A stretch of 62,176 nucleotides of DNA from a virus (taxonomy: Duplodnaviria > Caudoviricetes): positions 1-62,176 of the IMG/VR virus record IMGVR_UViG_3300025137_003955, one strand, 5' to 3'. Made by a program: the position numbers and the translations under genes. The notes under the pieces were generated by a model, which was given only the letters and a program-made list of their open reading frames with translations, was not told the DNA's origin and did no database searches. Numbering within the stretch: the first letter of the stretch is position 1; every line of letters begins with the position of its first letter. Below, one piece after another: positions 19,668 to 57,020 of this stretch.

Positions 19668-19668
19668 A

Positions 19669-38864: not shown

Positions 38865-39057
38865 GCTTATTTTTTTCTAGTATATATTGAACGGCTTCTT
38901 CAACATCGTCAATACCTTTATTAATGCCGTCCCATTTTTTATGTAACTCTTCGCCATACACAGGGCAAACACCTTTATGCTCAGGAAGATCTCCTCCGCA
39001 CATTTCACATCTGCCTTCTAATTTACGTTGGATTTTGTGCCAGTTAATCTCGGACAT
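38857..39057 (-). CDS. Small Zn-ribbon-like protein
   Basis: CEMCGG...H...C. Confidence 0.5.
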   Translation of the reverse strand: MSEINWHKIQRKLEGRCEMCGGDLPEHKGVCPVYGEELHKKWDGINKGIDDVEEAVQYILEKNKHV

Positions 39058-40558: not shown

Positions 40559-40704
40559 CTATATATGAAAGGGTCTCTTTTCCTTAATTCTTCTAATTTC
40601 TTTTTAAGTAATGCTTCCTCATCAGGAGTTAAGTCTAAATCATCATTAAAAACTTTGTTTTCATGTTCCTTTTGAGCATCATTTTTTTCTCTTCTTTCTG
40701 TCAT
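40555..40704 (-). CDS. Small protein ending KRDPFIYR (49 aa)
   Basis: ATGA-coupled to both neighbours. Confidence 0.6.
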   Translation of the reverse strand: MTERREKNDAQKEHENKVFNDDLDLTPDEEALLKKKLEELRKRDPFIYR

Positions 40705-41321
40705 GTGAAGTATCTCCATTTATACATTTCTATCAGACTTTGCGCCATAGTATTGTATAATTTCTCATCTTTTATATGCATTGTTTCACTAAAACTATCA
40801 GGCCATATATCTAAATATGTTTCTATAAAACTCTCTTGCGGCTTATAGTATTTACTAGTATCTATGCTATCCCATAGTGGTATCTGGCAGTTCTCTGGTA
40901 TACTATTAAACATGTTACAAAAAACATAATCTATATTTTTATTCTCTAAATATGTTTGCAATGCATACATATATGTAATAGTATCCTCTATTCCAGTTCG
41001 CCAATCTGCTAAATGTAAATCTGCATACCTATAAAACTTTTGTAAATCTATATTCTCACTTTGCTTATATAATGTATAATCTTTACGATCACCATCAAAA
41101 CTAAACTCAAATCTTTCGTGTGTACTCCAGCCAATTATTACTAAATCAACTGTATTGCTCTCACAATATTCCATTGTTGTACGGAGTATACGATGATTTC
41201 CACCACCGCCTTTAGCAATATTTGTTACATCAGAATTAAGGGTTTTTCGTAAAAAATATTTTAGTCCCTTATCACATTCACTTGCTTCAGTATGGCTACA
41301 ACCATTTAGTAAAATATTCAT
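40701..41321 (-). CDS. SGNH-hydrolase-like protein (GCS variant)
   Basis: NGCSHT, NIAKGGGGN, GWS..ER, C-terminal MH. Confidence 0.6.
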   Translation of the reverse strand: MNILLNGCSHTEASECDKGLKYFLRKTLNSDVTNIAKGGGGNHRILRTTMEYCESNTVDLVIIGWSTHERFEFSFDGDRKDYTLYKQSENIDLQKFYRYADLHLADWRTGIEDTITYMYALQTYLENKNIDYVFCNMFNSIPENCQIPLWDSIDTSKYYKPQESFIETYLDIWPDSFSETMHIKDEKLYNTMAQSLIEMYKWRYFT

Positions 41322-42622
41322 CTGTTTGATTGATACATTAATCTGTATAGTTCTGGAAGTGCTTCTTCCATACTTTCGTCTCTTTGTTTGTCTAGTAATT
41401 TTGTATACTTTTTAAATGTAATTAATTCTTGTTCCCAATTTTCTTTCCGGTTTTCTCTAAGTGCCTTAATAGTTGCTTCTATACTTTGCACATTTTCAGG
41501 TCTATTTTTTAATACCTTACTTCTTTTTAACCATTCCTCTAATCTGCCTGCGGCTACTTCCCTTACTTGCTCAGGACAGTTTCTAAAATCTAAACTAGTT
41601 GGATAATCACATATTAAGAAAGTAACAAATACCTGTCTACCATATTCTATCTCTAAACTTTCTATAAAGTCTAGTAATTTTGTTATGGTTAAAACATTAT
41701 AAATTTGTATAACAGGAGAGAATAAGACAGTTCCTACAACATCACTGGCACAATAAGTTCTTAAGTTCTTTTCAACTCTGCTCCAATGACTAGCACCACG
41801 TATGTATTCATTTTCATGCCCATAAGCATCTACACTAATACACATTAATACGTTTTTAAACTGCTCTACCAAGTCCAGAAAACGTTTCTGAATGTTGGTC
41901 ATGTTACTGTTGAACACTAGCTCTATATCTTTAGCAATGCCCATTTCCACACACTTCTCCATTATCCAATATACACGTTCAATTATAGTTGGCTCACCAC
42001 CTGTAAAGTATAATTTACTTACACCAGGTAACCATTCTTCTACTTGTCTTAAAAAATCTGGATCGTCTTCCCAATTGGTTAAATTGTCAACAAACTGACC
42101 CCAGGTAAAATTATCTTTTATAAATTGGCCTGCCCTAGGATCAGCAGTTTCTATCTTTTTGTATTCCTTCTGAATTTGACTTGAATTTTGTGGTTGGCAC
42201 ATTCTACACTTCAGGTTACACATATTGCCAAGTCTAAAATCCAAGTACATTGGGGATTCTTCTACTCTATAGTCGTTGTTTATACTACGCTCTATTATCT
42301 CATGGATTTCTTCTCCTCGTCCACTGTACTCGAACCAATCCCTAATATAGTTAGTCCTATAACTAGGGAAGCCCATATCTTCTAAATCATAACAATGCTC
42401 ACAACCTTTTACCACTTCGCCTTCGATCATCTCTTGGCGGATTTTACGCATATGATTGCTATTCCAGACACCCTCTATTTTGTGCCCACGATTTAGGTCT
42501 ACCATACTGCCATCATCATTTTTAAAATTATCACGTGCTACACAGCACCAGCTCACAGTACCTGTAGGCTGAGTCATGATAGATATCCAAGGATAAGGGC
42601 AAAATGTTTTACTGTATTCCAT
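41318..42622 (-). CDS. Radical SAM protein with N-terminal twitch/SPASM-like domain (#1)
   Basis: CPYPW...WCC...CEHC; CNLKCRMC; FTGGEP. Confidence 0.9.
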   Translation of the reverse strand: MEYSKTFCPYPWISIMTQPTGTVSWCCVARDNFKNDDGSMVDLNRGHKIEGVWNSNHMRKIRQEMIEGEVVKGCEHCYDLEDMGFPSYRTNYIRDWFEYSGRGEEIHEIIERSINNDYRVEESPMYLDFRLGNMCNLKCRMCQPQNSSQIQKEYKKIETADPRAGQFIKDNFTWGQFVDNLTNWEDDPDFLRQVEEWLPGVSKLYFTGGEPTIIERVYWIMEKCVEMGIAKDIELVFNSNMTNIQKRFLDLVEQFKNVLMCISVDAYGHENEYIRGASHWSRVEKNLRTYCASDVVGTVLFSPVIQIYNVLTITKLLDFIESLEIEYGRQVFVTFLICDYPTSLDFRNCPEQVREVAAGRLEEWLKRSKVLKNRPENVQSIEATIKALRENRKENWEQELITFKKYTKLLDKQRDESMEEALPELYRLMYQSNR

Positions 42623-43766
42623 TCCAGTCTTTCTCTATTAATTTAAAAAACTTAGGGAACACTTTATCGAACTGTTCCTTTCTAAATTTATCTATTTGTT
42701 TCGTTTGTATCAAAAAATTAGTAAATTCTGATGAATTATATTGTTCACCATTCATAAACTTCAATGTATTATTTACATGATCTGCGTTATTTCCCCCATA
42801 TAAAATGTTTATTTTTTCTTTGACTCTTTTAGGCAGTACTTTTGGAGAAATATGGCTAGGTGTAAATACCATGTTGTAGTGTATGTTTATCTCATCAAAA
42901 TGTTTTGATATAAAATCTGTTAATTCTGTCATGTGCATAATATTAAAGATACTTATAGTTTGGAAAATACCTATTGAAAATATTTCAGGATTAAGTTTAC
43001 TAAAATGTCCTAGATTAGTTATAACTTCTGCAAAGTTTCCAGGGAACCTGATGTATTCAAATCGTTCATTTATATCATCTATACTAAGAAATATTTCTAC
43101 TTTTTTAAATTTTTCCCATAAACTTATCCTGCTTTCAGGAAATATACTACCGTTTGTATTATACGATAAGGCAATATTTTTTGCAATGCCTAATTCTACA
43201 CATCTTTCCAGTATTTCATAATGCCTCTCAATCATTAAGGGCTCACCACCAAAGAATTCTAACTTTTCTATATTTTTTAAATGGCTGTCTATATCTTCCC
43301 AAAAATTTTCATTAGTTTTAGGCCACATGCCCAATTTATTAAAGAGTCTAGCACCTTCATTATTAGGATTTATTTTAAGCTCTTCAGCGGCCCATTGACT
43401 ACTAGCAAAACTACTGCATATTCTACATTTACTATTACAAATATTTCCTAATTTTAAATCTAATGCTTTAGTATTTGGTGTAAAGTCCTCTCCCCAATAA
43501 AAGTTTTCTCTTAATCTTTTACTTTGTATTCCTGCTTTTTCTTCATGCCAACAATTATTACATGCCTCTAGTTTTTCGTTATTTAAAAACTTTTGTTGTA
43601 TGTCTTTTAACCACTTACTTTCTTTAACGTCGCTTAGTGTGTCTCCATTTGCCAAATTAAATTCTGTGCCGTCATCTTTTTTAGCAGACTCCTGCATTAT
43701 GCAACACACTGACATTGTGCCATCAGTACGAGCTTCTAAATTAATAAATGGTAGAACGCAACTCAT
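42609..43766 (-). CDS. N-terminal-twitch radical SAM protein (#2)
   Basis: CVLPF...VCC...CNNC; CNSKCRIC; FFGGEP. Confidence 0.9.
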   Translation of the reverse strand: MSCVLPFINLEARTDGTMSVCCIMQESAKKDDGTEFNLANGDTLSDVKESKWLKDIQQKFLNNEKLEACNNCWHEEKAGIQSKRLRENFYWGEDFTPNTKALDLKLGNICNSKCRICSSFASSQWAAEELKINPNNEGARLFNKLGMWPKTNENFWEDIDSHLKNIEKLEFFGGEPLMIERHYEILERCVELGIAKNIALSYNTNGSIFPESRISLWEKFKKVEIFLSIDDINERFEYIRFPGNFAEVITNLGHFSKLNPEIFSIGIFQTISIFNIMHMTELTDFISKHFDEINIHYNMVFTPSHISPKVLPKRVKEKINILYGGNNADHVNNTLKFMNGEQYNSSEFTNFLIQTKQIDKFRKEQFDKVFPKFFKLIEKDWNGIQ

Positions 43767-44986
43767 ATGCCCGCCAACTCTGGATATACTTCATCAAAGT
43801 CCTCATCTCTTAATTTATCGAATTCAATATTAAATGCCTTAAACTCTTCCAGTAAATGTGTATGATCATCGTCTAAAAATAACATAGAACTTTTATAGCC
43901 TTCTGTTGCCCTGCCTATATTATCCTGAGGCTCTAACCAACGTAAATGTTTTTGCCATTTTGCTTTTATTTCTGCTCTCAATCTTTGTGGCAGTACACTC
44001 ATTCTAAACCTTTCATTGTTTAGTAGTACATTCATATACCAGTCTGCTGGTTTTATATAGCCTTTATCTACCCAACTTCTATGAAAGTCAGTAATATGCC
44101 AGGCGTTATAGGCACTAACTGTGGCACTAATATAAAAATCAACTTCAGGAGATGTTTCTTTTAATTGTTTTATGTTGTTCTCAACATCAGCCCATACAGT
44201 TCCTTTACGTTGATATTCTCCTCGTAAACCTTCTGCATCTAAACTAGCACCAACACTTATATTATCAAAGTTTTTCCACAAGTCTAATACATTATGTTTC
44301 TTATATGTTAATGTTGTGAAGTTTGTATTATAAAAAATGCGTATATCTGTTTTACCCATCTCAACAAGCCTGTTCATAATGCCCCAATGCTCGTCCATCA
44401 TTATAGGTTCACCACCTGCCCAGTATATTTGCTCTATGTGTTCCAGCATAGGGTCAAACTCTTCCATAAAGTTGTCAACGTCCTTACGGATTTGTATGAC
44501 ACGTTCTGTTGGACTTATATTAAATGTACTTGCTTTTGCATCAGCATACCAATTACTGCTTAGTTCCGGGCCACAGTACCTGCAACGTAAGTTACATACA
44601 TTACTGAAACGAAAGTCTAAGTAAACTATATGTAAATCATCTAAACTTCCGTCTGCATTTGTTTTTGCAACTTTATCCCAATGTGGCCCTAACCAGTCTC
44701 GATTACTTCTTACTCTTAAACTGTCATGACCTTTATCTTCTTTTTCATAACAACGTACACATTCTTTACATTTTTTTCCGTTTAGCATATTTAAGCGAAC
44801 TTGTTTCATTCTTTCGCTATTCCATACTTCTTCTAAACTATTTTCCCTTAGATCTCCTACATGGTTTTCCCATGGAGAGTCACAGCAAAGCATAGTTTTG
44901 CCATTTGGCCAAGGGTGCATATGAATCCAGGGCAGGATACACATTACATCATCTTCGTGATCCTCAATATTTGTGCTGAATTCCAT
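43763..44986 (-). CDS. N-terminal-twitch radical SAM protein (#3)
   Basis: CILPW...LCC...CVRC; CNLRCRYC; WAGGEP. Start chosen at MEFST (ORF track extends to 45004). Confidence 0.9.
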   Translation of the reverse strand: MEFSTNIEDHEDDVMCILPWIHMHPWPNGKTMLCCDSPWENHVGDLRENSLEEVWNSERMKQVRLNMLNGKKCKECVRCYEKEDKGHDSLRVRSNRDWLGPHWDKVAKTNADGSLDDLHIVYLDFRFSNVCNLRCRYCGPELSSNWYADAKASTFNISPTERVIQIRKDVDNFMEEFDPMLEHIEQIYWAGGEPIMMDEHWGIMNRLVEMGKTDIRIFYNTNFTTLTYKKHNVLDLWKNFDNISVGASLDAEGLRGEYQRKGTVWADVENNIKQLKETSPEVDFYISATVSAYNAWHITDFHRSWVDKGYIKPADWYMNVLLNNERFRMSVLPQRLRAEIKAKWQKHLRWLEPQDNIGRATEGYKSSMLFLDDDHTHLLEEFKAFNIEFDKLRDEDFDEVYPELAGI

Positions 44987-46211
44987 GTCTATCCAATATT
45001 TCAATTAATTCAGGGAATACTTCCCTCCAACCTTCTTCGTGGTTGCGTATTTTATCTAGCTCGTCATTGTACCGACAAAAGTGTTCCCACTTAACTTCGT
45101 CCCAATCATCGTCATTATACATGCTCAACAATGTTCCGAGCTCATGTCTGTTACCCATCGTTTTTCTAAACTTGGTATGGGCCTCGTGTCTCACGACAGG
45201 AGGTAGTATTCCAGGCGATAGGTAATCAGGGTCGTATACAAAGTTCATATCTACAGGCACTGGTGCCCAGTCTAAAAATTTATCTAGATAGATATAACTG
45301 TATGCACTTACAGTTTGTGTTATTCTTACTGTAAGTTCAGGTACTTGCATAATTTTTTCTAAATTTTGCTCTACGTCTGACCATTCCGTAGGGTATCTGA
45401 TATATTTGTTTCTATGATCAAAGTCGTCTATACTAGGACATACTCTGGCTTCTTTAAATTCTTTCCATAATGGTATTGCTTTGTCCGGAACTTGGGTCAT
45501 ATTAATATTATACCACAGTATAATGTTTTTACTACGTCCACTTTCCACAAGCATTTCCAAAAACTTCCAATGTGCTTTAATTAATGTGGGCTCACCACCA
45601 TTAATGTATAATACTTCCATGTTAGGAGCACATTTAAATAGGTCCTCATAAAAGTTTTCATCTTCTGGCCATTGAAAATCATGCTTATGATCTAACCAAC
45701 TGTATCCGTCATTTACGAACTCCAGGGAATCCACAATTTTTTTATAGTCCGCCACCCAACGTGAACTACTTGCTGGATTACAAGTGCGACAGCGGACATT
45801 ACAAACGTTACCAAGACGAAGTTCAACAAAGCGAAGATCCATAGGTATGCTACCATCCTCACTTGTAAGTCTGGATGCGTAATCGGGGTTAAAGTCCTTA
45901 TAAATCTTGGACTCGTAGACTCGTTTGCTCTCAATTCCTTTTCTTTCTTCATCGTAGCATCTTTTACATGCTTTAGGCTCCAAATCATTTAACATCTCCT
46001 TTCTAATCTCTTTGAAATAATCACTATTCATATGTGTATTAATATCATGATCATTTAAGTTGAAGAATTCCTCTCGTTCTTCTCCATAATTTCTTGCTCT
46101 ATTCTTTCCTGCAGTCATATCTGATATACAGCAAGGTGTAACACCGCCATGCGGATGTGTACCTAAATGTAACCAGGGTAGCGGACAAAAAGTATCGTTT
46201 TCAATACTCAT
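44964..46211 (-). CDS. N-terminal-twitch radical SAM protein (#4)
   Basis: CPLPW...PCC...CKRC; CNVRCRTC; INGGEP. Confidence 0.9.
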   Translation of the reverse strand: MSIENDTFCPLPWLHLGTHPHGGVTPCCISDMTAGKNRARNYGEEREEFFNLNDHDINTHMNSDYFKEIRKEMLNDLEPKACKRCYDEERKGIESKRVYESKIYKDFNPDYASRLTSEDGSIPMDLRFVELRLGNVCNVRCRTCNPASSSRWVADYKKIVDSLEFVNDGYSWLDHKHDFQWPEDENFYEDLFKCAPNMEVLYINGGEPTLIKAHWKFLEMLVESGRSKNIILWYNINMTQVPDKAIPLWKEFKEARVCPSIDDFDHRNKYIRYPTEWSDVEQNLEKIMQVPELTVRITQTVSAYSYIYLDKFLDWAPVPVDMNFVYDPDYLSPGILPPVVRHEAHTKFRKTMGNRHELGTLLSMYNDDDWDEVKWEHFCRYNDELDKIRNHEEGWREVFPELIEILDRHGIQHKY

Positions 46212-47536
46212 ATAATCGTGCCTGCTTGTAAGTTTCCAAAGTTTGGTATGTTTTCAATATTGTACTTAAACGTATCGTAATTAAAAACTCTATGTTTTAC
46301 TAATATTTCAAATAGTTCAGGAAAACATTCTCTAAAATTTTCTTTTCTATACAAATCACCTGCAACGATTTCTTTGCAAAACATAAACCAACGTTTTTCT
46401 ATTTCTGCTTCTACTGTATCTTCACCACTAGTGCCATATGGTAGTGTTGTAAGAGTACGTGGCGTCATTACATGGTGAAATATTCCTTGTATTTCACTTT
46501 GATATTCTGGTCTAAAATTAGTTGGGTCTTCTAAACTTTTTACTATCTCTGGTTTACATTCTTCTGGAAAAACATTGCAATTAAACCATGTTGGAAAGTT
46601 AGCCATATTATGAAATATAATAAAATTGGGCCAACGTTCTTCAAATGTTTTATGTAACTCTGCCAAGTACATTACATTTAATGCTGTAATCGTACAAGTT
46701 ACACCTATACTTACATTTTCTAAATCTATTAGATTATGGAACCAGTCTAAATTACTTGCTACTTCGCCCTTCCAATCAGCACCATGTCTTAAATAGTCAA
46801 ATCTTTTTTGTGCGGCGGCATCTATACTCACATTAAATCCAACAGATTTAAAGTTTCTTAACATTTTTTCAATAAAAGGCTTATTTACAGTGGTACCATT
46901 TGTGCTAAAAGATATCTCTAAATCTTTTGAGATACCATCTGCCATTAGTTTATCTGCAAATACTCTGAACTCTTTCATATACAATGGATCGCCACCCATT
47001 ACTTCTAAAAATCTTATATTAGGTAACCACTGATCCATCTGAGTCCAAAATTTAGACGCAGAATCGTTCATTCCTATTTTAACTTTTTCTTCAATGTATG
47101 GCAGTTTTCTGTCTTTTGCTTCTTTTACCCATTTACTGCTGTAATTGGGATTACAACTTCTACATTTTAGGTTACAAGTATTACTTAAAATAAGTTGAAA
47201 GTCTTCCGGCAAATCAGGTTCATTAGCATAATCTATTTCACCGTATCGCTGTACAGCAATTTCATTATATAATTCACGTTTAGACTTTTTACCATTTCGT
47301 TCATCTTGCCAACAAGGCTCACAATTTTTAGGTCTTTCACCGTCACGTATTGCTTGTCTTATTTCTTTGTAATATTTACTATGAAAAATATCTTCCACAG
47401 ATGTTTGACCCAAAGTAAATTCTCTACCTGTTTCATCAGGTACTCTATCTCTGGCAATACAACATGTCCTAACATGCCCTAACGGCTCGTTACTTATGTG
47501 TTTCCAGAGTAGTGAACAATATTTTGGGTCTGACAT
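46208..47536 (-). CDS. N-terminal-twitch radical SAM protein (#5)
   Basis: CSLLW...TCC...CEPC; CNLKCRSC; VMGGDP. Confidence 0.9.
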   Translation of the reverse strand: MSDPKYCSLLWKHISNEPLGHVRTCCIARDRVPDETGREFTLGQTSVEDIFHSKYYKEIRQAIRDGERPKNCEPCWQDERNGKKSKRELYNEIAVQRYGEIDYANEPDLPEDFQLILSNTCNLKCRSCNPNYSSKWVKEAKDRKLPYIEEKVKIGMNDSASKFWTQMDQWLPNIRFLEVMGGDPLYMKEFRVFADKLMADGISKDLEISFSTNGTTVNKPFIEKMLRNFKSVGFNVSIDAAAQKRFDYLRHGADWKGEVASNLDWFHNLIDLENVSIGVTCTITALNVMYLAELHKTFEERWPNFIIFHNMANFPTWFNCNVFPEECKPEIVKSLEDPTNFRPEYQSEIQGIFHHVMTPRTLTTLPYGTSGEDTVEAEIEKRWFMFCKEIVAGDLYRKENFRECFPELFEILVKHRVFNYDTFKYNIENIPNFGNLQAGTII

Positions 47537-47537
47537 T

Positions 47538-48854
47538 TTACTTCCTGGTATTGCCGTAATGTATTACTGTGACACCTTCAACGTCTGGAGTTTTTCTCCA
47601 TGGATCTACAACAATACTTTCCGGTGCAAATTTTAATTCTGTACCGTTTCCTGTTGCTACTGTTAAAGCAGTATCACAATCTGTTACACTATGCTCACCA
47701 TTGTACCAACCTGGTACTGTGTCTAGTTGATCACCATATGTAATACTTGGATTATGTGCTAACAGATAAACTGCTGGATTTTCTAACACTTCCTGTGGTG
47801 GAATATCACCAGTTTTTTCATCATAATAGTATAAAGCAAAACCTTGTTTTTCTATGTAATGACCTACTAGCATACTACTAGAGCCTGATTCGTACTCTAC
47901 CAGAGGCTTATATGCCTTACCAACTATTATAATTGGTAACTCCGGCACTAACCCAAAATGGTGTTCATGTCCTGCTAGTTGCATTAATCGTTTTGCCATA
48001 TTTTCTGCTTGTACTTCTCTACTAAGCATCACAGCATCAAATAAATCATATCCTAGATCAAGTTCTTCTGCCATCCAACGTAAAGCGATATTATCTCTAG
48101 GGTGACAAGCACCACCATCGCCCATACCTGGAATCATATAACCTGGTCCCATAATACGCCTATCTGATGTTGCTAAGGCATCACAAACTACTTCTGCGTT
48201 TATATTACCTGACTTTTCTGCAACATCTTGTATCATGTTTACTAGCGATACTTTCGCTGATATAAATGTATTGTAAAATACTTTAATGCATTCTGTTTCG
48301 TCCCAAGTACCTATGATGTATCTTGGTGTGTTCTGCATAATTGTTTTATAGAAGTCTACAAGTTCCAATGCGTCACCTGTTTCACTTCCATCTTCCGTTC
48401 CAATCATTACCATTTCTGGATTAACCATATCCCATTTTACTGTACCCATAGCAATTAAGTATGGATTGTAAACGAATCTGGCGTTTGGAATTAAATCAAT
48501 AAACTCTCTCCTGGTTGTTCCAGGGAGAACTGTTGATATAAGGACTACTAATTGGTCTTTGGTTGCAACCGCATTTACTTTTGAAAGGACTTCTTTAACT
48601 AAACTATAGTCAAAGTCCTTGTTTGGTAAATGGCTGGTTGGTGCTTTTCCATCATATTGTGGGTCATGCGGTGTAGGTACAGCAATAAAAACAATATCTT
48701 GTCCTTTAACTGCTCCTTCCAACGTGTCGCTCATTGTAAAGTTTTCAGGCTCTACAGGATTAACATCATAACCAACAACATCATGTACTTCAGCGACCAT
48801 CTCGGCGCAGGCTTGTCCTAACTTGCCAACTCCGATAAATCCGACTGAGGCCAT
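47538..48854 (-). CDS. ugd: UDP-glucose/GDP-mannose 6-dehydrogenase family
   Basis: GVGKLG, AVPTP, STVLPGTT, ETECIKVFYN, GGACHPRD. Confidence 0.9.
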   Translation of the reverse strand: MASVGFIGVGKLGQACAEMVAEVHDVVGYDVNPVEPENFTMSDTLEGAVKGQDIVFIAVPTPHDPQYDGKAPTSHLPNKDFDYSLVKEVLSKVNAVATKDQLVVLISTVLPGTTRREFIDLIPNARFVYNPYLIAMGTVKWDMVNPEMVMIGTEDGSETGDALELVDFYKTIMQNTPRYIIGTWDETECIKVFYNTFISAKVSLVNMIQDVAEKSGNINAEVVCDALATSDRRIMGPGYMIPGMGDGGACHPRDNIALRWMAEELDLGYDLFDAVMLSREVQAENMAKRLMQLAGHEHHFGLVPELPIIIVGKAYKPLVEYESGSSSMLVGHYIEKQGFALYYYDEKTGDIPPQEVLENPAVYLLAHNPSITYGDQLDTVPGWYNGEHSVTDCDTALTVATGNGTELKFAPESIVVDPWRKTPDVEGVTVIHYGNTRK

Positions 48855-48881
48855 CTCTATCTCCTGTGTTGTTGTGTAGTT

Positions 48882-49640
48882 TTATCTACTTGTATATTTA
48901 TCAGGTAGTCTTTTATACTCTTCTGTTTCATGACTGAGGTATTCCTCTAAAACAAAGTATAAATTTAAATTTTTAATAATTTGTTCTAAAGAATTTTTTA
49001 GGTCTTTATTAGTGATATTTTGGTATTCCACTGGCATAAATCCTAGTTCTTGTGTAAACCTATCTATATTTTTACTATCTATAATTACTTTATTTTTAAA
49101 ATGACTAATTTCTTTTAACCAGTTTCTAGTATGATAATTATCATTAATAGCATAGGACTTTACAAACTTGTAATTATATTTAGATAAATTTACAGCATCG
49201 TATTCTGTTAGGTAAATAAACCTGTTTAATAAGTCTTCACATTTTAAAGGAGATTTAAGTATTAGCTCATTAAGTTTTATACCATTTTCACTACCGTATA
49301 AAGGCTCAAGTAAATCTGATAGTATTTCTTTTACCCCACTAACGTATCTTTGCCATGGGTCTCTAATTACAAAATGCGGTACTGCACCTTTTTCAATTAA
49401 TCGTTTCAATCCTTCATATTGATCTATATAGTCATGATCGTCTTTATCAATTAAATCGAAATGCTCTAAAATTACTCTTGCGGAACCTTCTCCTACCCCA
49501 ACATAATCTAAACTAGTATATAACGTTGCATCTGCAAATGGTGGAGGATTAAAACCTAGTATACTCTTAAGTAAAGATGTAGTGCCTGTTTTGCCCACAC
49601 TATATACTAGCATACTGCAATCTTTTTTAACTAATAACAT
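48882..49640 (-). CDS. Sulfotransferase (Sulfotransfer_2 family)-like protein
   Basis: 5'-PSB KTGTTSL and 3'-PB VIRDPWQRYVSG. Confidence 0.7.
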   Translation of the reverse strand: MLLVKKDCSMLVYSVGKTGTTSLLKSILGFNPPPFADATLYTSLDYVGVGEGSARVILEHFDLIDKDDHDYIDQYEGLKRLIEKGAVPHFVIRDPWQRYVSGVKEILSDLLEPLYGSENGIKLNELILKSPLKCEDLLNRFIYLTEYDAVNLSKYNYKFVKSYAINDNYHTRNWLKEISHFKNKVIIDSKNIDRFTQELGFMPVEYQNITNKDLKNSLEQIIKNLNLYFVLEEYLSHETEEYKRLPDKYTSR

Positions 49641-51043
49641 TATCTTTCATTGTCCTTAAAGTCTACTCTCATCCACCAATCATATAATTCGCTGTCTAAT
49701 TTATAGACGTCCTCAATAGTAATCTTTTGGTCCGGTCTCATTTCTGCAATTCTGCGTTGCCATTTTCTGCCTCTAAAGAAGTTATCCTCATGCTCATCAG
49801 GCCATTGTTCCTCAAATGTAGGAACAGTAAGCATATTCTCTAATTCTCTTATAAGTGTTTCTTGCTTATGTGTTGCACGTGGACGTATGTAGTCTAAATT
49901 CTCATGTATAATTCTGTCTAATATATGTCTCGGCCATGCCATAGGACTAAAAACTATATCACTATGGAATGCAAACATCCTTTTTGTTTCAATTTTAACA
50001 TCTAGCTCTATTGCATAATCAAAAAAGTTTTTTAAGTCCAGCATACCAGGGCCGGTTAGTGTTAAGTCCATTAGCATTTTATCATGTCCGCCTGGTAATG
50101 CTACACCTTCTCTGAAGTTTTTATCCCACTGATCCCATTTAAGTCCTGTACGAATAAATTCTCCTATCCAACCTGTGCCATCTATACTTGCACACATTGT
50201 CCAATCTTTTGCTTGTGGTAACCAGTCATATAAGTAATGCTTACCTAATCTCACACGACTTAAATTACTATTATAACGTAAGTGTACAAGTTTTAGTGTA
50301 TCATCTTGTGCTAATCTATCCATTGCTCGCCAATGTATATCATACATAAGTGGTTCACCACCTACCCAGTATAATTCCTCAACTGTACCCGAACAAATGT
50401 ATTCCCAAAACTCTTCTTCTACAACTTCTTTTTGGAACTTGTCTATTATCTTTTTATTCTCTGGAACCATGAACGGTTGGTTCTCAGGCGACCATTGATC
50501 ATGCTTTCGCTTCTCGGCCTCCCATGCTGAACTGAGCGGCTCACCACACATACGGCATTTAAAATTGCATAAATTACTAACCCTATAATCAAAAGAGATA
50601 GGTTCCATTGTAGTGAATCCATTTGCATCTGTCTCCTCAAAACATTTATCTATTTTATTTTCAAACAAGTAACCTGTAAACCATTGTCTATATGTACTTT
50701 GGCTTAACACACTATCATTACATACATTACATTGCGGTATCTCTTCACCTGCCATAAGTTTTCTTCTTATGTCCATCATATAAGGAGAATTCCAATGCTC
50801 TTTTAATGTAACTGGTTTATAATCTGCAATAGTTCCCACTGGTCTAAACATGCCTGTACTTTCATCATTACTAGCATCTATATATTGCTTTTGCATCATA
50901 TGATCTTCACGTGAAGCACAGCACATACGCCTTTCTGATTGCGGAGAAATATAGGTATGGGTCCAGGGTGCTGTACAAAACACCCTGTTTTCTGAATCTG
51001 GGTGCATAGCACCGTGTTCCCATTTAGGTTTTATTTTACTCAT
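49640..51043 (-). CDS. N-terminal-twitch radical SAM protein (#6)
   Basis: CTAPW...MCC...CNVC; CNFKCRMC; WVGGEP. Confidence 0.9.
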   Translation of the reverse strand: MSKIKPKWEHGAMHPDSENRVFCTAPWTHTYISPQSERRMCCASREDHMMQKQYIDASNDESTGMFRPVGTIADYKPVTLKEHWNSPYMMDIRRKLMAGEEIPQCNVCNDSVLSQSTYRQWFTGYLFENKIDKCFEETDANGFTTMEPISFDYRVSNLCNFKCRMCGEPLSSAWEAEKRKHDQWSPENQPFMVPENKKIIDKFQKEVVEEEFWEYICSGTVEELYWVGGEPLMYDIHWRAMDRLAQDDTLKLVHLRYNSNLSRVRLGKHYLYDWLPQAKDWTMCASIDGTGWIGEFIRTGLKWDQWDKNFREGVALPGGHDKMLMDLTLTGPGMLDLKNFFDYAIELDVKIETKRMFAFHSDIVFSPMAWPRHILDRIIHENLDYIRPRATHKQETLIRELENMLTVPTFEEQWPDEHEDNFFRGRKWQRRIAEMRPDQKITIEDVYKLDSELYDWWMRVDFKDNER

Positions 51044-51192
51044 ATTTCTTCAGGATTGTATAAACAGTCTTTATGTAATTCTTCCATTTGAATATCTTCT
51101 TCGGTAACGTCACACCAATTACACGGTTCACCTTTAAGTGTTCCTGTAGTGCCTTGATCTTTACAATCATGAGTCCAAAACTTATTTTCCAT
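51040..51192 (-). CDS. Small Cys-rich peptide (50 aa)
   Basis: MENKFWTHDC...PCNWC...KDC; overlaps both neighbours. Confidence 0.5.
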   Translation of the reverse strand: MENKFWTHDCKDQGTTGTLKGEPCNWCDVTEEDIQMEELHKDCLYNPEEI

Positions 51193-51931
51193 TTGCTATT
51201 TCTATTTGATTTAAATTTATGAACATGTCATAAAATCTTTCTGGTGTTAAAACAGCCTCCCCAAGATCTCCTGCTTCATCGCCTAAATATTTTTCTATAA
51301 ATTTAACATTTTTTAATTCTACAGCACAGTCAGGATATATGTCAGCACTTCTTCCTTCATATCCTACATTATCATTATACTCTTTACAAAGTTCTAATTT
51401 ATCTAAACCCAGATCTTCTATTGAGCTTGGCATTTTATATGCGGCATGATATAGTGTAATGTTTTCTTTTAACTTCCAATGCTTGGGCTTACCTATTTCT
51501 ACTATACTGCCGAAAGGTACAGTAATGTGATTAAATCTTTGCTCACAAAATTGCCATAAGTCTAAATTATTTCTGGAATCAAAATGTATTTTAATTTCCT
51601 TGCAGTCAGTATTTTCTAACACCCATGCACCTGCTTCAGTATCTGTAATACTCCATATAACTGGTATGCCTATATCTTCTGTTAAATTATTTAGTTTTTT
51701 TACAGTTAATTGATCTATTTCACTTTTATTAGCAACTTCTAAATATGGTAAATTACCCCACTTACTGTTAATACTAATATATTTTTTGTTCTCTGGTATG
51801 CTTAAACTTGGAGTTGATTTAGAAATAATAATAGCATCGCTATGGCATTGAGCCGCGGCTATAATTCTATTTTCTAATGTATTCCAATCATTTTCATGAC
51901 CTATACTTATGTTAGCATATAGATCAGCCAT
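51182..51931 (-). CDS. NeuB/SpsE (N-acetylneuraminate synthase)-like TIM barrel, degenerate
   Basis: ANISIGHEND (cf. AEIGxNHNG), TLYH, VGY, FIEK; SD GGAGG-like GGTGG before MADLY. Confidence 0.55.
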   Translation of the reverse strand: MADLYANISIGHENDWNTLENRIIAAAQCHSDAIIISKSTPSLSIPENKKYISINSKWGNLPYLEVANKSEIDQLTVKKLNNLTEDIGIPVIWSITDTEAGAWVLENTDCKEIKIHFDSRNNLDLWQFCEQRFNHITVPFGSIVEIGKPKHWKLKENITLYHAAYKMPSSIEDLGLDKLELCKEYNDNVGYEGRSADIYPDCAVELKNVKFIEKYLGDEAGDLGEAVLTPERFYDMFINLNQIEIANGK

Positions 51932-53594
51932 CGTCTGCACCACCTAAACCATCTGTTTCTGTGTCCCAGCCTATACTACTTCCTGAACCTGCCTTAGGTT
52001 TATAGTCAGGCTCAAATGCAAATAGATCACTATCGTAATCCTCATCACTCTCACCTGTTTTACGTCCACGCATTTTCATTTCAACAACTTTAACTTCCCC
52101 ATCTTCAGTAACAATACGTTTAGCATATAAACTATCAGTAACACCATGTGTTTTAGGTGCTTGAATATCCTGCTCATTTAAGTCTATTGGTTGTATAGTA
52201 ATGCCATCGTAAAACTCTGCCAGTCTAGGAAATGTTTCTTTAAAGTTAAAGCCACGTCTTGCATCATATTGCTCATAAAATAATTTAAAATCATGCTCTA
52301 ACAAAGTCATATCAGCAGTATTTCTGTGAGGCGTTTTAACAACGTCTAAATATTCTATTAGTCTACTTAACTGGTCTTGTTCCCACGGTTGCACCAATGC
52401 TAACCCGTCTTTATCCTTTTCGTCTCGCTCTCTAACACCGTCCAACCATGTACTTATTTCATCATGATATATTTTACGCAAGTTATCAGGTAATGTCAAG
52501 GGCGATTGGAAACTAGGAAAACGTAAAATATTACAGGTAAATCCAGGACGATTATGGCCGTATTTACGTTTCATTCCTAGCATCCAATCTAAAAATTCCA
52601 CTATGGAGTCTAAGCATAGTGCATTAATTGTCATCATCATATGTAGTCCTTCTATGTTTGCTTCACTACATATTCTTTCAAAATTTTGTGTCCAGGTATC
52701 CCACTCTAAACCATCTCTAATATATTCAAGTTGAGGACCAAATGCCTCGCCACTAGAATATAAATGAAATTTGTTTATATTTTGTGTACCTTTAATAAGT
52801 TTATCTAACAGACCTTTCTTCGCCATTAGATTACTATTAATAGCAAATCTCATATTTTGTGCATTGGGTTCATCGGTTTTTTCAAACCAATCAAACAATT
52901 GATATATGTCTGGAGTCATAAGTGGTTCACCACCTGTAACTCTAATCTCTTCCAAATCTTTACTAAGTTCCGGCCACCATCTCCAGAATGCATCTACATA
53001 TGGATTCTGTTGACCCTCATCAAAAGGTTCGGCGTAGGGGGCATCATCAATAAAGTGCCCTCTTGCATCTGATTTAATACCTTGGTATCCACCGTTAGTA
53101 CGAATATCTTTTACCCATGTGCTACTAAAAGCAGGGTTACAATAACTACATGCAAGTTGGCAAGTTCTATTGAAAGCAATCTCTAATGTTTTTAAATTTA
53201 CATCAAAAGATGGTTCTAAATTTGCCGCAGTTTCTAAGTCTTTATCCTCATAGATAACTGTTTTGTAAACTCTGTCCGATACAGGCTCATTGCCGTCTGA
53301 GTCCTTTTCCATGTCCTCAATTTTCCAACAGTACTCACACTCTTTTGGTCTGTCACCTTTTTGCATCATATCACGCATTTTCTTTTTATGACGTGTATTA
53401 TGAATCGCAGACGGATTAGTTTTGATCTCTTCTAAATCAATTTGGTGTGCAGGAGGGTGATGGCAACTAGTTGTTCCACCGTGCCCTAACCATATGGTAG
53501 CATTGTACCACTTAGCACCACAAAAAGAATCACTTACAGGATCAATCATCCTTGCTTTATATTCTCTGTGACTTTCGCCTTGTTTCCTTCCCAT
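51924..53594 (-). CDS. N-terminal-twitch radical SAM protein (#7) with acidic C-terminal extension
   Basis: CGAKW...SCHHP...CEYC; CQLACSYC; VTGGEP. Confidence 0.9.
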   Translation of the reverse strand: MGRKQGESHREYKARMIDPVSDSFCGAKWYNATIWLGHGGTTSCHHPPAHQIDLEEIKTNPSAIHNTRHKKKMRDMMQKGDRPKECEYCWKIEDMEKDSDGNEPVSDRVYKTVIYEDKDLETAANLEPSFDVNLKTLEIAFNRTCQLACSYCNPAFSSTWVKDIRTNGGYQGIKSDARGHFIDDAPYAEPFDEGQQNPYVDAFWRWWPELSKDLEEIRVTGGEPLMTPDIYQLFDWFEKTDEPNAQNMRFAINSNLMAKKGLLDKLIKGTQNINKFHLYSSGEAFGPQLEYIRDGLEWDTWTQNFERICSEANIEGLHMMMTINALCLDSIVEFLDWMLGMKRKYGHNRPGFTCNILRFPSFQSPLTLPDNLRKIYHDEISTWLDGVRERDEKDKDGLALVQPWEQDQLSRLIEYLDVVKTPHRNTADMTLLEHDFKLFYEQYDARRGFNFKETFPRLAEFYDGITIQPIDLNEQDIQAPKTHGVTDSLYAKRIVTEDGEVKVVEMKMRGRKTGESDEDYDSDLFAFEPDYKPKAGSGSSIGWDTETDGLGGADDG

Positions 53595-53845
53595 TATTTC
53601 TCCTTAGGATAACCTACATACCAATCTTTTATGGTTTCTACCCGTACATCTCTCCATGCTTTAACATCTAATCCCCACATAATTAAACTGTCTGGACTAT
53701 TGTATCCACCTATTTTCATCTCAATACCTGAGATGTCATTATTTAATGTGCAAGGCATAGTTCTTATCTCGCCTGTACCTATTTTTTCAAATACAACTGT
53801 AACTACACTCTTTTTTAAAGCATCTACTATTGGCTTTGTGTTCAT
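53594..53845 (-). CDS. WYL_2/DUF2693-like SH3-fold phage protein
   Basis: VVTVVFEKIGTGEIRTMPCTL...WRDVRVE. Confidence 0.6.
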   Translation of the reverse strand: MNTKPIVDALKKSVVTVVFEKIGTGEIRTMPCTLNNDISGIEMKIGGYNSPDSLIMWGLDVKAWRDVRVETIKDWYVGYPKEK

Positions 53846-55374
53846 AATAATGCCTCTGCTTCCTGACAAATACTCCACCAATCTTCCATTTCGGGAAATG
53901 TAGATAAAAAATCTGTATCTCTACGCTCATCATGTTGCGTAAAAAATTTATAAAAATTTGCTCTTGCTTTTGTAAGTTCTTCTTTATCCATATTACACCC
54001 TGCTTTCATCCATTCTAGGTTTCTACGAACTTTATCAATTTCAAAATCTTTAAATCCTCTATAGTCTATATTTACTTCATCTGCCCTATTTAACTCCATA
54101 AATGCTATTGCTTCTTCCAAATAACTCTGATAATATTCAGGCATTATTTGTATACATTGCCAAAGTGGCGCTCTAAGTAAAGGTATATCAAACCATATAC
54201 GTTGTTTAGGCCTAACTTCATAATCATCATGTTTATGTCCACCATTATCTGGTATAGGAATATATTTAATACCCTGTCTGTCTTTAGCATACTCGTCACG
54301 CAAGTCTAAAATCCACTGTAAGTAATCCCTTAAACTGGGTAAACTTAGTACGTTAAAAGTATTAATAAATGTAATTGTGCTATTGTCTGATTCTTGTAAT
54401 ATACGTTTTACATTCTTTTGTAACATTGCAAAATCCATACCATTACGCATATACTCTGCTTGAGGTCCATAGCCATCTAAACTTACAAATGTGGCAAAGT
54501 TCTTACATGCTGGTGCTACATACCAGTTATTTCCAGAGTTTGGATTAAACTTTTCTGGATCTTCCCATATTTGTATCTCTTCTAATCTTTGTAGTTTATC
54601 TAAAAACATATCCATTAAGATAGGTTTAGGTGGACACATATTAGATGTTAGTGACATCTCAAGCCAAGCATTTGGATTTTCGTATACATAGTCTAATACT
54701 TTAAATGTATTAACATCCATTAATGGTTCACCACCTGTCATACGAAAAACTTCTAAATTTTTATATAACTCCGGCCACCATTTCCAAAATGCTTCCACAT
54801 ATGGATTTTCATTTTGTGCAAGTTTTTTTGGAAGTAGTCTCTGGTTACTTAAACTATCTAAGTTATTATGTTCACCATTAGCAATAGTGTAAGGGCCATA
54901 TTCTTTTACTTCTTTTTCCCATGACGTACTTAAATGTGGACTGCAATAACTACATTTTAAATTACATGCTTGATTAAAATTTACTTCTACATAACGTGGA
55001 TTTATATTACCTTCTGCACCTGCTTCTGCTATTTCTTCTCTGGCATTTTGAGCCCAGTACTCTCCACTACGATAAACTCGGTCACTTCTTCCACCTACAT
55101 CTTCTATACGCCAACAGTAACTACATCCTTCTGGTCTTTCGCCTTTTAACATTTGAGCACGTTGCTCTTTCTTTTCTGCTGTATTATGTAATGCAGAAGG
55201 ATTAGTTTTTATTTCTTCAACATCTATATCATGTGTGGGAGGATGATAGCAACTATGAGTTTTGCCGTTTGTTAAGTGCATAGAAACTTGTGTCCATTTT
55301 GCGTAACACATTGTTTCGCTTATGACATCTAGTTGTTCCTTGGCCTTATCTGCGGCTTGATCATATATACTCAT
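53842..55374 (-). CDS. N-terminal-twitch radical SAM protein (#8)
   Basis: CYAKW...SCYHP...CSYC; CNLKCSYC; MTGGEP. Confidence 0.9.
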   Translation of the reverse strand: MSIYDQAADKAKEQLDVISETMCYAKWTQVSMHLTNGKTHSCYHPPTHDIDVEEIKTNPSALHNTAEKKEQRAQMLKGERPEGCSYCWRIEDVGGRSDRVYRSGEYWAQNAREEIAEAGAEGNINPRYVEVNFNQACNLKCSYCSPHLSTSWEKEVKEYGPYTIANGEHNNLDSLSNQRLLPKKLAQNENPYVEAFWKWWPELYKNLEVFRMTGGEPLMDVNTFKVLDYVYENPNAWLEMSLTSNMCPPKPILMDMFLDKLQRLEEIQIWEDPEKFNPNSGNNWYVAPACKNFATFVSLDGYGPQAEYMRNGMDFAMLQKNVKRILQESDNSTITFINTFNVLSLPSLRDYLQWILDLRDEYAKDRQGIKYIPIPDNGGHKHDDYEVRPKQRIWFDIPLLRAPLWQCIQIMPEYYQSYLEEAIAFMELNRADEVNIDYRGFKDFEIDKVRRNLEWMKAGCNMDKEELTKARANFYKFFTQHDERRDTDFLSTFPEMEDWWSICQEAEALL

Positions 55375-55377
55375 TTA

Positions 55378-56028
55378 CTAGAATGTAATACCAAAGTTTA
55401 TAGATTTCGTATCTCTGTCTTGAAATCCCTCGTCAATCATTCTCCATGAAATACCTACTGTGATGTTATCTGCAAGTTGGTAATCCAAGTTAAATTCGTT
55501 CCTAGTATAAGAATCGTTTCCTGACTCGTATAAAAACTTATTAGTGGCACTTAGTTTGTCAGCAATTTTGTAAGTTATCCATGTACTGTTCCTAATAATT
55601 GCTTCACTACTATCACTTTCTAAATATGCAACTGAGTATTCGTTGCTGACTTTTATACGTTCTGAACGGTATACTTTATAACCAAAACCTGCACCAATAA
55701 CTGTTCTTGTTTTATATTTAGATCTATACTTGTCATTATCAACCTGTACTAAACCTAGAAAGTACATTTTATCTGTCTTTTCATAATTTTGTTTAAGGTT
55801 AAAATATGTTAAATTTTCTTCTTCTTCGCCATCGTTTTCTTCTGTAACAAAATCAAATTCTATATTTGTTTGCCATGGCCCAACTTCTCTACTCCAATCT
55901 ATACTTAGATCTAATTCCATGTCACCGTCGTCTACTTCTGCGCCGAAGCCAACATCTATTGCATAGGCATTAATACTTAATAGTAATAATACTACTCCTG
56001 TTACAATACCTAATACCCATTTTTTCAT
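55378..56028 (-). CDS. Outer-membrane beta-barrel (YdiY/DUF481-like)
   Basis: Signal peptide MKKWVLG...AYA, alternating beta strands, GAGFGYK, C-terminal FGITF. Confidence 0.7.
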   Translation of the reverse strand: MKKWVLGIVTGVVLLLLSINAYAIDVGFGAEVDDGDMELDLSIDWSREVGPWQTNIEFDFVTEENDGEEEENLTYFNLKQNYEKTDKMYFLGLVQVDNDKYRSKYKTRTVIGAGFGYKVYRSERIKVSNEYSVAYLESDSSEAIIRNSTWITYKIADKLSATNKFLYESGNDSYTRNEFNLDYQLADNITVGISWRMIDEGFQDRDTKSINFGITF

Positions 56029-57020
56029 AATAATCCCTTCTCTAATAATTCTTGTATTTGTTTTTCTCTTATCATGGCACCCCATCTTTTAGGATTAACA
56101 TAAGTTAATTTAAAAAATTTACACATTTGAGGATTAGGGTCAAACAACATCATTTCGTTAATGCTTTCGTTTAGTTTATGGCCTAGATCTTTAATAGCAA
56201 TCTCTAACATGTCACGGTCCCATTTAACTTTAGAATATTTACATACTTCATCTCCTGGAAAACGAGGTAGTATAGTGTTATCAAAGAAGTCTTTAAACCA
56301 ATCATAATCTGATATTAGATTTGTATTCCATGTACTATTAACGGTCATGTCACACCCTAGTCTCGCTCCGTAGAGAGCCCATAAGCCATTATCTACATCG
56401 CTACCAATATTACACCATGTTTGTAATCTGTTATAGTTTTGCCACCAAATTTTTTCTTTAAATTCATCTGGTCTAACACGGGCACCTTGATCAGTACTCA
56501 TTTTAACACCTTCTCTAAACCCTGCTCTAAAGGCTTGAAACGGACTTGCTGTTTGATGTACTTCGCTAAACGTGTCGTTAAGTTGTATGTAATCTAACTT
56601 CCAGCAAAATTCCATACCCTCGCCATCTTCAGCGGCTTCATGAGTGTTCATGTCTTTAACATATTCTGTGGGCCAACATTTAAGTCCGCCGTTACCATAT
56701 ACTAAGCCATTTAAAATATTTTTTGCATTCCAACTAAAGATACATTCACTAATAACTTTACCGTCATGATCAGTATCAGGAACATCTAATGTTTGTTCAA
56801 AGAAGTCGTCCATGACAATGTTATCGCCATCTACGGTTATAAATCTATCTGTTTCGGATTGATTGGCACATTCTTTGTGTGCGGCATCAAAGCCTTTCAC
56901 ACCGTGTACACGTTTAGCCCAAGGGACCTTGTTTAATAAGTCAGCCCAATGCTCTTCCGCATTTGGTTCGTCATAAGAAATATAGAATATGTCTAATTCT
57001 GTAACATCGATCTTCGCCAT
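56025..57020 (-). CDS. GT-A fold glycosyltransferase-like protein
   Basis: DIFYISYDEPNA, VKGFDAAHK, TVDGD (DxD), YGNGGLKCWP, AFRAGFREGVKM. Confidence 0.75.
   Translation of the reverse strand: MAKIDVTELDIFYISYDEPNAEEHWADLLNKVPWAKRVHGVKGFDAAHKECANQSETDRFITVDGDNIVMDDFFEQTLDVPDTDHDGKVISECIFSWNAKNILNGLVYGNGGLKCWPTEYVKDMNTHEAAEDGEGMEFCWKLDYIQLNDTFSEVHQTASPFQAFRAGFREGVKMSTDQGARVRPDEFKEKIWWQNYNRLQTWCNIGSDVDNGLWALYGARLGCDMTVNSTWNTNLISDYDWFKDFFDNTILPRFPGDEVCKYSKVKWDRDMLEIAIKDLGHKLNESINEMMLFDPNPQMCKFFKLTYVNPKRWGAMIREKQIQELLEKGLL

Follow-up and report, generated by a model that had tools for sequence, protein, structure and literature searches.

The 62,176-nucleotide (nt) record IMGVR_UViG_3300025137_003955 of an uncultured marine T4-like phage (the window, analysed over its whole length) carries eight minus-strand open reading frames (ORFs) between 41318 and 55374, R1–R8, that encode radical S-adenosylmethionine (SAM) proteins. 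All eight belong to NCBIfam NF033640 (N_Twi_rSAM, "twitch domain-containing radical SAM protein"), and to judge from their sequences they represent at least seven separate old subgroups of that family, being neither recent duplicates nor a phage-specific expansion. We consider it somewhat probable that they are distinct functional members working as a set in a phage-encoded cytoplasmic sugar-tailoring pathway.

The eight translations match NF033640 with 283.2–393.5 bits, all above its curated cut-off of 170 bits (catalogue kind "subfamily"), and the matches extend from profile positions about 1–5 to 391–398 of 398. A six-frame search of the record returned the same eight above the cut-off together with a weak 21-bit match, which is the QueE-like gene at 18786–19667. 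In the alignment of R1–R8, four N-terminal cysteines (C8, C27, C74, and C77 in R1 numbering) are invariant, as are CxxxCxxC (C135, C139, and C142) and GG[ED]P (G208, G209, and P211), and C-x3-[WF] begins at the first cysteine in every paralogue. Because no conserved cysteine is present C-terminal to the radical SAM core in this alignment, the auxiliary motif is placed at the N-terminus; the canonical SPASM/twitch layout, in which the auxiliary domain is C-terminal as in anSME, BtrN, and MoaA, is not found in R1–R8. NF033640 shows the same order, a four-cysteine N-terminal module and then the CxxxCxxC core. Pfam SPASM matches lie at residues ~3–109, ahead of Radical_SAM, in six proteins (five exceed the cut-off), and R7 and R8 give a Radical_SAM match only. 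PF04055 Radical_SAM exceeds its 29.5-bit cut-off in R1, R2, R3, and R5 and scores 23–28 bits in the other four. R1–R5 are contiguous, with overlaps of 14, 4, 41, and 4 nt; R3 probably starts at residue 7, which would give it the 407 residues of its database homologues and shrink the 41-nt overlap to 23 nt. An array of eight members is far beyond chance. A preliminary description of this DNA, made from its letters, had reported eight ORFs with CxxxCxxC and GG[ED]P, a twitch module in front of the core, and five genes in direct tandem (41318–47536), and had suggested a comparison with the N-terminal-twitch radical SAM hidden Markov model; the alignment, the Pfam matches, the 4–41-nt overlaps, and the family scores bear out each of these points.

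The family is widespread. Among 1.84 billion cluster representatives (50%-identity level), R3 has 10,122 matches at E ≤ 1e-3 and 1473 at E ≤ 1e-30, and R8 matches more than 100 metagenome clusters at about 60% identity. Bacterial loci were collected by a pattern scan in which each prokaryote species was represented by one genome; the best 80 of 398 confirmed stretches, in 62 loci, were taken. These loci come from metagenome-assembled genomes (MAGs) of Bdellovibrionota, Bacteroidota, Elusimicrobiota, Gemmatimonadota, and Pseudomonadota, and their ORFs of at least 250 residues include 128 family members. Every paralogue is nearer to some bacterial-locus ORF (32–56% identity; individual values in Table 1) than to any of its siblings, pairwise identity among the eight being only 20–30%. 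A FastTree tree was built from 76 rows, the eight window proteins and 68 domain rows that represent 25 of the 62 loci; the 37 other loci contributed no rows, and a match had to span at least 300 profile positions to be included. R1, R2, R3, R4, R6, R7, and R8 fall into separate clades with bacterial rows, with support values of 91–100. The clade of R1 includes its orthologue in locus L014 (56% identity), and R2 groups with rows from L014, L018, L027, L045, L017, and L067 (support 91). R4 forms a three-row clade (support 100) with Bacteriovoracaceae and Porticoccaceae rows, and R6 forms another (support 100) with rows from L018 and L027 at 42–44% identity. R7 lies in a seven-row clade (support 99) with bacterial rows at 49–51% identity, and R8 in a four-row clade (support 100). 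R5 is on a long branch, and its placement has a support of 22.

The tree also recovers the two subtypes that the preliminary description had distinguished. R7 carries SCHHPP and NPYVDAFWRWWPEL, and R8 carries SCYHPP and NPYVEAFWKWWPEL, in agreement with the reported SC[HY]HP and NPYV.AFW.WWPEL signatures; both proteins lie inside a 13-row clade with a support of 100. S-C-[HY] occurs in all 13 rows of this clade and CC in 62 of the 63 remaining rows, and the pattern C-x9-16-G-x4-C...CxxC...CxxxCxxC is present in 67 of the 76. The accompanying proposal, that the second subtype has an altered set of auxiliary iron–sulfur (Fe–S) ligands, is unsupported. A MAFFT alignment of the eight places the single cysteine of R7 and R8 on the second C of CC. 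R3 and R8 share NGKT just upstream, and aligning this motif puts the R7/R8 cysteine on the first C, at the G-x4-C position. In a 60-sequence alignment (A2), the first cysteine, C40, is invariant and C41 is conserved only at 90% or more. Since the R7/R8 cysteine corresponds to the invariant first cysteine of the pair, all four canonical cysteines are kept in both subtypes, and the difference is confined to the extra, non-canonical cysteine, which is replaced by H or Y in R7 and R8. The four-cysteine spacing of both subtypes is presumably like that of the fully ligated twitch cluster of BtrN. As speculation by analogy, the extra cysteine might be a hydrogen donor, as in radical epimerases.

Gene order connects the types further. 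The best matches of R1–R3 are all located in L014, a 14-kb contig of a gammaproteobacterial MAG with the order R4-x-R3-R2-R1-DUF6071-carbamoyltransferase-giant repeat protein; this is the gene order of the window, at 41–61% identity, and L014 probably comes from a phage and was sorted into the bacterial MAG during binning. The order in the Bacteriovoracaceae locus L018 is R7-R6-R4-R3-R2-x-R8-R7-x-R8'. A single Haliscomenobacter MAG contains two clusters, L027 and L045, which begin with p299/p287-GT331-...-p370-like-R8-p370-like-R7-R3-(DUF6071)-R2 and continue with p370-like-R6-x-carbamoyltransferase-p370-like-p370-like, and share several genes other than radical SAM genes with the gene island around R1–R8 (Table 1). 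As these orders show, the old types travel together as sets in phages and bacteria. An Elusimicrobia MAG (G014, 2.9 Mb; loci L052 and L035) contains 52 NF033640 matches in one genome, many of them tandem fusions of 540–1220 residues with long N-terminal extensions; those in the tree are recent copies of the R3 type only. In the Bdellovibrionota sample, 31 of 151 genomes carry the family with 1–11 matches each, counts that are lower bounds (at least 11 for the top genomes).

Selection was estimated by the Nei–Gojobori ratio of nonsynonymous to synonymous substitution rates (dN/dS), using orthologues from four related IMG/VR records. For the radical SAM genes, 18 of 19 pairs give 0.020–0.316 and the 19th is saturated, the ratios being rough in that dS is 0.39–3.2 and often near saturation. 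The closest orthologue of each gene gives 0.045–0.081; R1 ranges from 0.02 to 0.06 and R5 from 0.08 to 0.32, and 13 pairs of neighbouring genes give 0.018–0.279. The sequences thus compared place all eight clearly under purifying selection, and the relaxed selection of decaying duplicates, which the preliminary description had set against its own proposal, is not seen at ratios of 0.02–0.32. The array recurs in related IMG/VR records, with eight copies in G001 and in G010 and eight plus one in G006 (250.5 kb); the more distant relatives G007, G008, and G009 have four, two, and one. A database search found a 93%-identical R3 homologue on another contig, and near-identical DNA occurs in at least 14 DNA runs of 13 studies with marine, seawater, or viral metagenome labels, one of which is possibly the source of the record. 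Among cultured phages, megablast with the region gave no match. With R3, tblastn found 16 records at 23–26% identity (KVP40-like Vibrio phages, K566/K567, and RsoM2USA), all distant, and with R8 it found RsoM2USA only, at 34%, where the neighbourhood is annotated entirely as "hypothetical protein". The record is 17% complete by CheckV and encodes a T4-type family B DNA polymerase (phrog_262, E 8e-197).

R3 was folded as the single representative, and the AlphaFold2 model built with A2 has a pLDDT of 94 and a pTM of 0.90. With this model, Foldseek gave generic radical SAM matches only (E about 1e-5, TM 0.27–0.41). VIA-align against 48,161 chains gave tied scores for BlsE (Z 12.6), anSME (12.5), CteB (12.0), SkfB (11.9), viperin (11.5), and MoaA (11.4), in matches that span only the core, R3 residues about 124–384. 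A profile of the eight proteins matched the PDB sequences of TigE (9e-7), BlsE (1.5e-5), and MoaA (2e-4), and the BtrN twitch region (167–237) aligned to profile positions 39–95, i.e., to the N-terminal module, with E 0.009–0.017. The best scores of the eight are 21.9 bits against a cut-off of 349 for anSME (TIGR03942), 31.3 against 284 for MoaA (TIGR02666), 21.5 against 131 for NrdG (TIGR02495), and 32.4 against 180 for viperin (NF038283). Scores so far beneath the cut-offs put the proteins outside NrdG, MoaA, and anSME, clustering with which would have told against the preliminary description. The eight belong to the SPASM/twitch branch, in a permuted domain order, and no characterised enzyme is near enough to lend them a function.

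Three kinds of enzymes nevertheless invite comparison. BtrN, the butirosin dehydrogenase (PDB 4m7t), resembles R1–R8 in having one auxiliary cluster module and acts on a sugar-like substrate, but its twitch module is C-terminal, whereas that of R1–R8 is N-terminal, and it is not among the 50 structural matches listed for the R3 model. BlsE, the cytosylglucuronate decarboxylase (PDB 7vob), is the best structural match of the R3 core (root-mean-square deviation 3.8 over 218 residues) and ranks second among the PDB sequence matches. The target of BlsE is a glucuronic acid moiety, and a gene resembling nucleoside diphosphate (NDP)-sugar 6-dehydrogenases heads the R5–R1 run here; however, BlsE differs in domain order, and its model TIGR04466 gives 17 bits against a cut-off of 400, with R2 only. 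The peptide maturases anSME, CteB, SkfB, and TigE share the core fold and the auxiliary-cluster cysteine motif with R1–R8 (Foldseek E about 1e-5 and VIA Z 8.9–12.5 to the R3 model), but they carry the auxiliary domain at the C-terminus, generally with two clusters in it. R1–R8 score 15–33 bits with the NCBIfam models of these maturases, against cut-offs of 340–855, and no precursor peptide was seen here.

The eight genes are part of one co-directional block that spans about 32.8 to 62 kb, with the genes read towards lower coordinates (Table 1). The dehydrogenase-like protein scores 145 bits with TIGR03026, under the cut-off of 189.8, and the NeuB-like protein only 28 bits with TIGR03569 against a cut-off of 400. 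Homologues of the carbamoyltransferase are present in 8 of the 62 bacterial loci, with 48% identity in L027/L045, and a DUF6071 gene likewise stands among the radical SAM genes of L027. The 331-residue protein is 42–46% identical to genes in both Haliscomenobacter clusters; it has no Pfam or NCBIfam match and nothing meaningful in a PDB sequence search, which was equally uninformative for the 287-residue protein. Residues 1063–1286 of the 1286-residue protein resemble the 331-residue protein (E 2e-16), and at least seven strict repeats H[VT][FWY]..GG[ILV].[LW].P (about 12 by eye) were counted in it. The 252-residue protein at 48882–49640 has no Pfam, NCBIfam, or PHROG match. The C-terminal domain of the 370-residue protein, p370, occurs in five copies per Haliscomenobacter cluster, interleaved with radical SAM genes, and its motif (A3), V.ET...F.TEKT.KPIA..PF..G..G.L..LR.LGF.TF....DESYD, is reminiscent of GT10-type transferases. 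A role of p370 as a glycosyltransferase (GT) is kept only as a lead (Atlas 0.78–0.79 to Glyco_transf_10): 11 members gave no Pfam match, no PDB match was found, and the AlphaFold2 model has a pLDDT of 51.8.

Table 1. Genes of the island, in gene order, and the p370 gene, with the best identity of R1–R8 to an ORF of the bacterial loci
Feature	Coordinates	Strand	Match or remark	Best identity
DUF805	61868	-	island	
299-aa protein (p299)	60572..61471	-	27% identity to L027 ORF; 29 related IMG/VR loci; no family	
356-aa protein	59505-60575	-	no family	
287-aa protein (p287)	57709..58572	-	phrog_1903; 32% identity to L027/L045 genes	
331-aa protein (GT331)	56025..57020	-	DGD motif; GT-A-like by eye only	
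DUF481 outer-membrane-type protein	55378..56085	-	Pfam DUF481 63 bits; N-terminal hydrophobic segment	
R8, N-twitch radical SAM, SC[Y] subtype	53842..55374	-	510 aa; NF033640 326.6 bits	48%
WYL_2 small protein between R8 and R7	53594..53881	-	PF10902 26.7 bits, exactly the cut-off	
R7, N-twitch radical SAM, SC[H] subtype, acidic C-terminal tail	51924..53594	-	556 aa; NF033640 304.7 bits	51%
NeuB-like TIM-barrel protein	51182..51943	-	253 aa; Pfam NeuB 39.1 bits, E 7e-10	
R6, N-twitch radical SAM, CC type without G-x4 spacing	49640..51043	-	467 aa; NF033640 291.3 bits	44%
252-aa protein between R6 and dehydrogenase	48882..49640	-	82-83% identity in relatives	
NDP-sugar dehydrogenase-like, heads R5-R1 run	47538..48854	-	Pfam UDPG_MGDP_dh central and N domains	
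R5, N-twitch radical SAM, CC type, GGDP	46208..47536	-	442 aa; NF033640 283.2 bits	32%
R4, N-twitch radical SAM, CC type	44964..46211	-	415 aa; NF033640 359.9 bits	40%
R3, N-twitch radical SAM, CC type	43763..45004	-	413 aa; NF033640 393.5 bits	49%
R2, N-twitch radical SAM, CC type	42609..43766	-	385 aa; NF033640 326.7 bits	49%
R1, N-twitch radical SAM, CC type	41318..42622	-	434 aa; NF033640 354.5 bits	56%
DUF6071 protein	40701..41321	-	PF19547 31.3 bits	
NodU/CmcH-type carbamoyltransferase	39044..40558	-	Pfam Carbam_trans_C and Carbam_trans_N	
1286-aa repeat protein	35004..38864	-	no family match; 41% identity to L014 ORF; 1364-aa counterpart in L014	
Weak methyltransferase match	34349-35017	-	island	
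AAA_28 protein	33596-34189	-	island	
370-aa protein (p370)	31681..32793	+	BLAST matches in L027/L045	

Of 32 ORFs put through a hydrophobicity scan, 29 belong to the island downstream of 30.8 kb, and 26 of these 29 lack a transmembrane-like segment; Pfam scans of the window gave no match to Wzx, Wzy, WecA, or ABC genes. Because the island ORFs mostly lack a membrane segment and these genes were not found, the pathway looks cytoplasmic. Elsewhere in the window, there are a GalE gene and a weak GT1 match.

The window ends 0.7 kb upstream of the last gene of the island that is seen. In the relative G006, which shares 84% identity in the 299-residue protein, the island is directly downstream of structural genes: a baseplate wedge gene (phrog_10646, E 0), a gene for a structural protein of more than 4651 residues (phrog_10938), and one for a 616-residue protein with a weak tail-fibre match lie ahead of it. 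The account of pelagimyophage gene order in PMC7029224 locates the host recognition cluster, with its tail-fibre genes, among the structural genes, flanked by the giant VrlC gene and the neck gene gp14. By analogy, the placement of the G006 island would fit such a cluster. In our window, GATAAATA was found six times against 5.8 expected, each time 22–76 nt before an ORF start; the distance is 41 nt for the dehydrogenase gene, 35 nt for the 331-residue gene, and 71 nt for the structural gene at 674. ATAAATA is depleted, with 15 found against 39.8 ± 6.5 expected, and all 15 are on the local coding strand, as if a promoter word were being avoided elsewhere. From position, we infer late promoters of the NATAAATA type. 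For TATAAATA, the late promoter of T4 itself, the window has no site, where 12.9 ± 4.2 were expected. Sigma-70-like sites (80 against 82.9 expected in the window) and terminator-like sites (10 against 8.4, none of the ten on the coding strand) are not enriched. RNA-library contigs from four runs of three studies cover 23–30 of the 30 bins of 39000–58000, and at least nine listed pieces of 180–339 nt match the region without mismatch; DNA carry-over is possible, and these data are not counted as transcription.

Several other genes of the window were noted. A 7-deazaguanine-type module at 17600–20677 (+) comprises GTP cyclohydrolase I (17600–18289), the QueE-like radical SAM gene, which gives weak QueE model matches, and small unassigned ORFs, and it suggests a modified base in the phage DNA. 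A cytochrome c domain protein (Pfam Cytochrom_C, 34 bits) is encoded at 23492–23938 (+) and a second outer-membrane-type protein (Gcw_chp, 53.5 bits) at 5352–5969 (+). The segment 25408–28771 (+) contains a weak MoxR-type AAA ATPase, a 217-residue ORF without a family (26749–27402), and a DUF2201 metallopeptidase/VWA protein (134 bits). A structural or baseplate-like gene occupies 674–3970.

Pfam scans of 99 proteins from eight bacterial loci showed glycan genes beside the radical SAM genes in five. These include UDP-GlcNAc 2-epimerase, a nucleotidyltransferase, and GT2 with a deacetylase in L019; GT4, UGDH, an epimerase, a Wzt-type ABC exporter, and a methyltransferase in L023 and L032, both from Bacteroidota MAGs; GT2, GT4, and TPR proteins in L026; and DUF6071 and the carbamoyltransferase in L027. 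L023 and L032 also carry four to eight PhyH dioxygenases, a WelO5-like halogenase, and a UbiA prenyltransferase, so that oxygen-dependent and oxygen-sensitive tailoring arrays stand side by side. Among 32 long family representatives, eight are fused to TPR repeats, one to Sel1 repeats, and one to GT2, and in the remaining 22 nothing was recognised beyond SPASM, Radical_SAM, and Fer4_12.

A sugar substrate is favoured because the island holds NDP-sugar dehydrogenase-like, NeuB-like, and carbamoyltransferase genes and because glycan genes accompany the family in five of the eight scanned bacterial loci; the link to sugars drawn in the preliminary description is thus favoured by context in phage and bacteria. 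In such a pathway, SAM would be bound at the [4Fe-4S] cluster of CxxxCxxC and cleaved to a 5'-deoxyadenosyl radical, which would take a hydrogen atom from an unactivated C–H bond of a sugar. That sugar may still be carried by a nucleotide, or it may be a residue that the adjacent GT-like proteins have added beforehand. The four cysteines of the N-terminal twitch module would hold a second [4Fe-4S] cluster, which may accept or pass on an electron in the closing step. Possible results are oxidation, epimerisation, and decarboxylation, by analogy with the sugar-acting enzymes BtrN, NeoN, and BlsE, and each orthologous type would have its own substrate or position. The product would be made late in infection and would most likely be placed on a part of the virion, less likely on the host surface. 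In a bolder version, which we regard as possible but improbable, the eight would make up an "editing line" of radical enzymes that works on a glycan built by the phage. Every type would have a GT-like partner of its own and carry out a different C–H functionalisation on sugars after or just before their transfer, the second cysteine of the CC pair would be the hydrogen donor, and a rare-sugar chain on host-recognition parts would result.

Several observations weigh against a sugar-tailoring pathway. In three of the eight bacterial loci no glycan genes are nearby: L018 adjoins obg and rplU, L063 lies among housekeeping genes, and L016 is beside an ABC-2 system. The GT-like partners have no family match, and the p370 model is poor. 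The dN/dS ratios are rough, and GATAAATA is not enriched, the promoter reading being drawn from position and strand. Literature searches found no NF033640 member with an assayed function, and the sugar substrate is argued from context. Furthermore, the peptide maturases CteB, SkfB, anSME, and TigE score level with the sugar enzyme BlsE as neighbours, and TPR or Sel1 repeats, usually a means of binding proteins, are attached to 9 of the 32 long representatives. Most SPASM/twitch enzymes modify peptides, and a protein substrate is a serious rival, although we rate it as unlikely. The enzymes would then introduce cross-links, epimerised residues, or oxidised side chains into a virion protein, such as a giant structural or fibre protein, or into another phage or host protein. 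Such a role is consistent with those maturase neighbours and repeat fusions, with the Elusimicrobia genome, in which many of the 52 copies are in long TPR-type fusions, and with the position of the G006 island after giant structural and fibre-like genes. On the other hand, neither a precursor-peptide-like gene nor a recognition element of ribosomally synthesised and post-translationally modified peptides was noticed in the island, Pfam scans found no PqqD-like domain, the conserved partners are sugar-type enzymes and GT-like proteins, and eight conserved types would require eight target sites.

The other two alternatives concern the destination and the class of the substrate. The radical SAM enzymes might make unusual nucleotide sugars for the host machinery, altering the O-antigen or capsule during infection against other phages. 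The discussion of host recognition cluster GTs in PMC7029224 proposes the same for those enzymes and mentions radical SAM cassettes there. Family members in L023 and L032 are clustered with the Wzt-type ABC exporter, GT4, and UGDH, and the island itself includes the DUF481 outer-membrane-type gene. Yet no membrane-bound glycan machinery was found in the window, and the island is co-directional with late structural genes and, in G006, directly behind them, a setting that suits decoration of the virion at least equally; we consider modification of the host surface quite unlikely. It is more doubtful still that the substrate is a lipid, an aminoglycoside-type secondary metabolite, a nucleotide, or a DNA base. 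Aminoglycoside pathways include both NodU/CmcH-type carbamoyltransferases and twitch radical SAM enzymes; in the Bacteroidota loci, family members stand beside PhyH dioxygenases, a UbiA prenyltransferase, and a WelO5-like halogenase, and the window holds the 7-deazaguanine module. However, that module is 20 kb away on the other strand with its own QueE-like enzyme, and the island has no polyketide, non-ribosomal peptide synthetase, or lipid genes.

To date, the family has been catalogued, and phages of this kind with several radical SAM genes have been published. Nishimura 2017 (PMC5332604) describes an environmental T4-like genome of 183 kb in which 12 radical SAM genes occur together with Fe–S assembly genes, and Zaragoza-Solas 2020 (PMC7029224), in its treatment of the pelagimyophage host recognition cluster, mentions radical SAM cassettes. 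Neither the family nor its N-terminal twitch layout is named in the sections of these two papers that deal with such genes, and the same holds for the orthologous types and their counterparts in bacteria; PMC11002830 covers twitch domains in general terms only. Literature searches, judged partly by titles and abstracts, found no paper on the NF033640 family itself.

NF033640 is a very large family without a known reaction, and fixed sets of its old subtypes occur in abundant ocean phages and in bacteria. The eight intact, selected, and compact genes described here, together with their likely partners, form a ready panel for finding that chemistry. They could reveal with what giant aquatic phages decorate their particles or hosts, and how phages run eight oxygen-sensitive enzymes in seawater hosts. 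If the eight did edit a phage-built glycan in such a line, they would define a new functional class, radical SAM glycan editors common to phages and predatory or filamentous bacteria.

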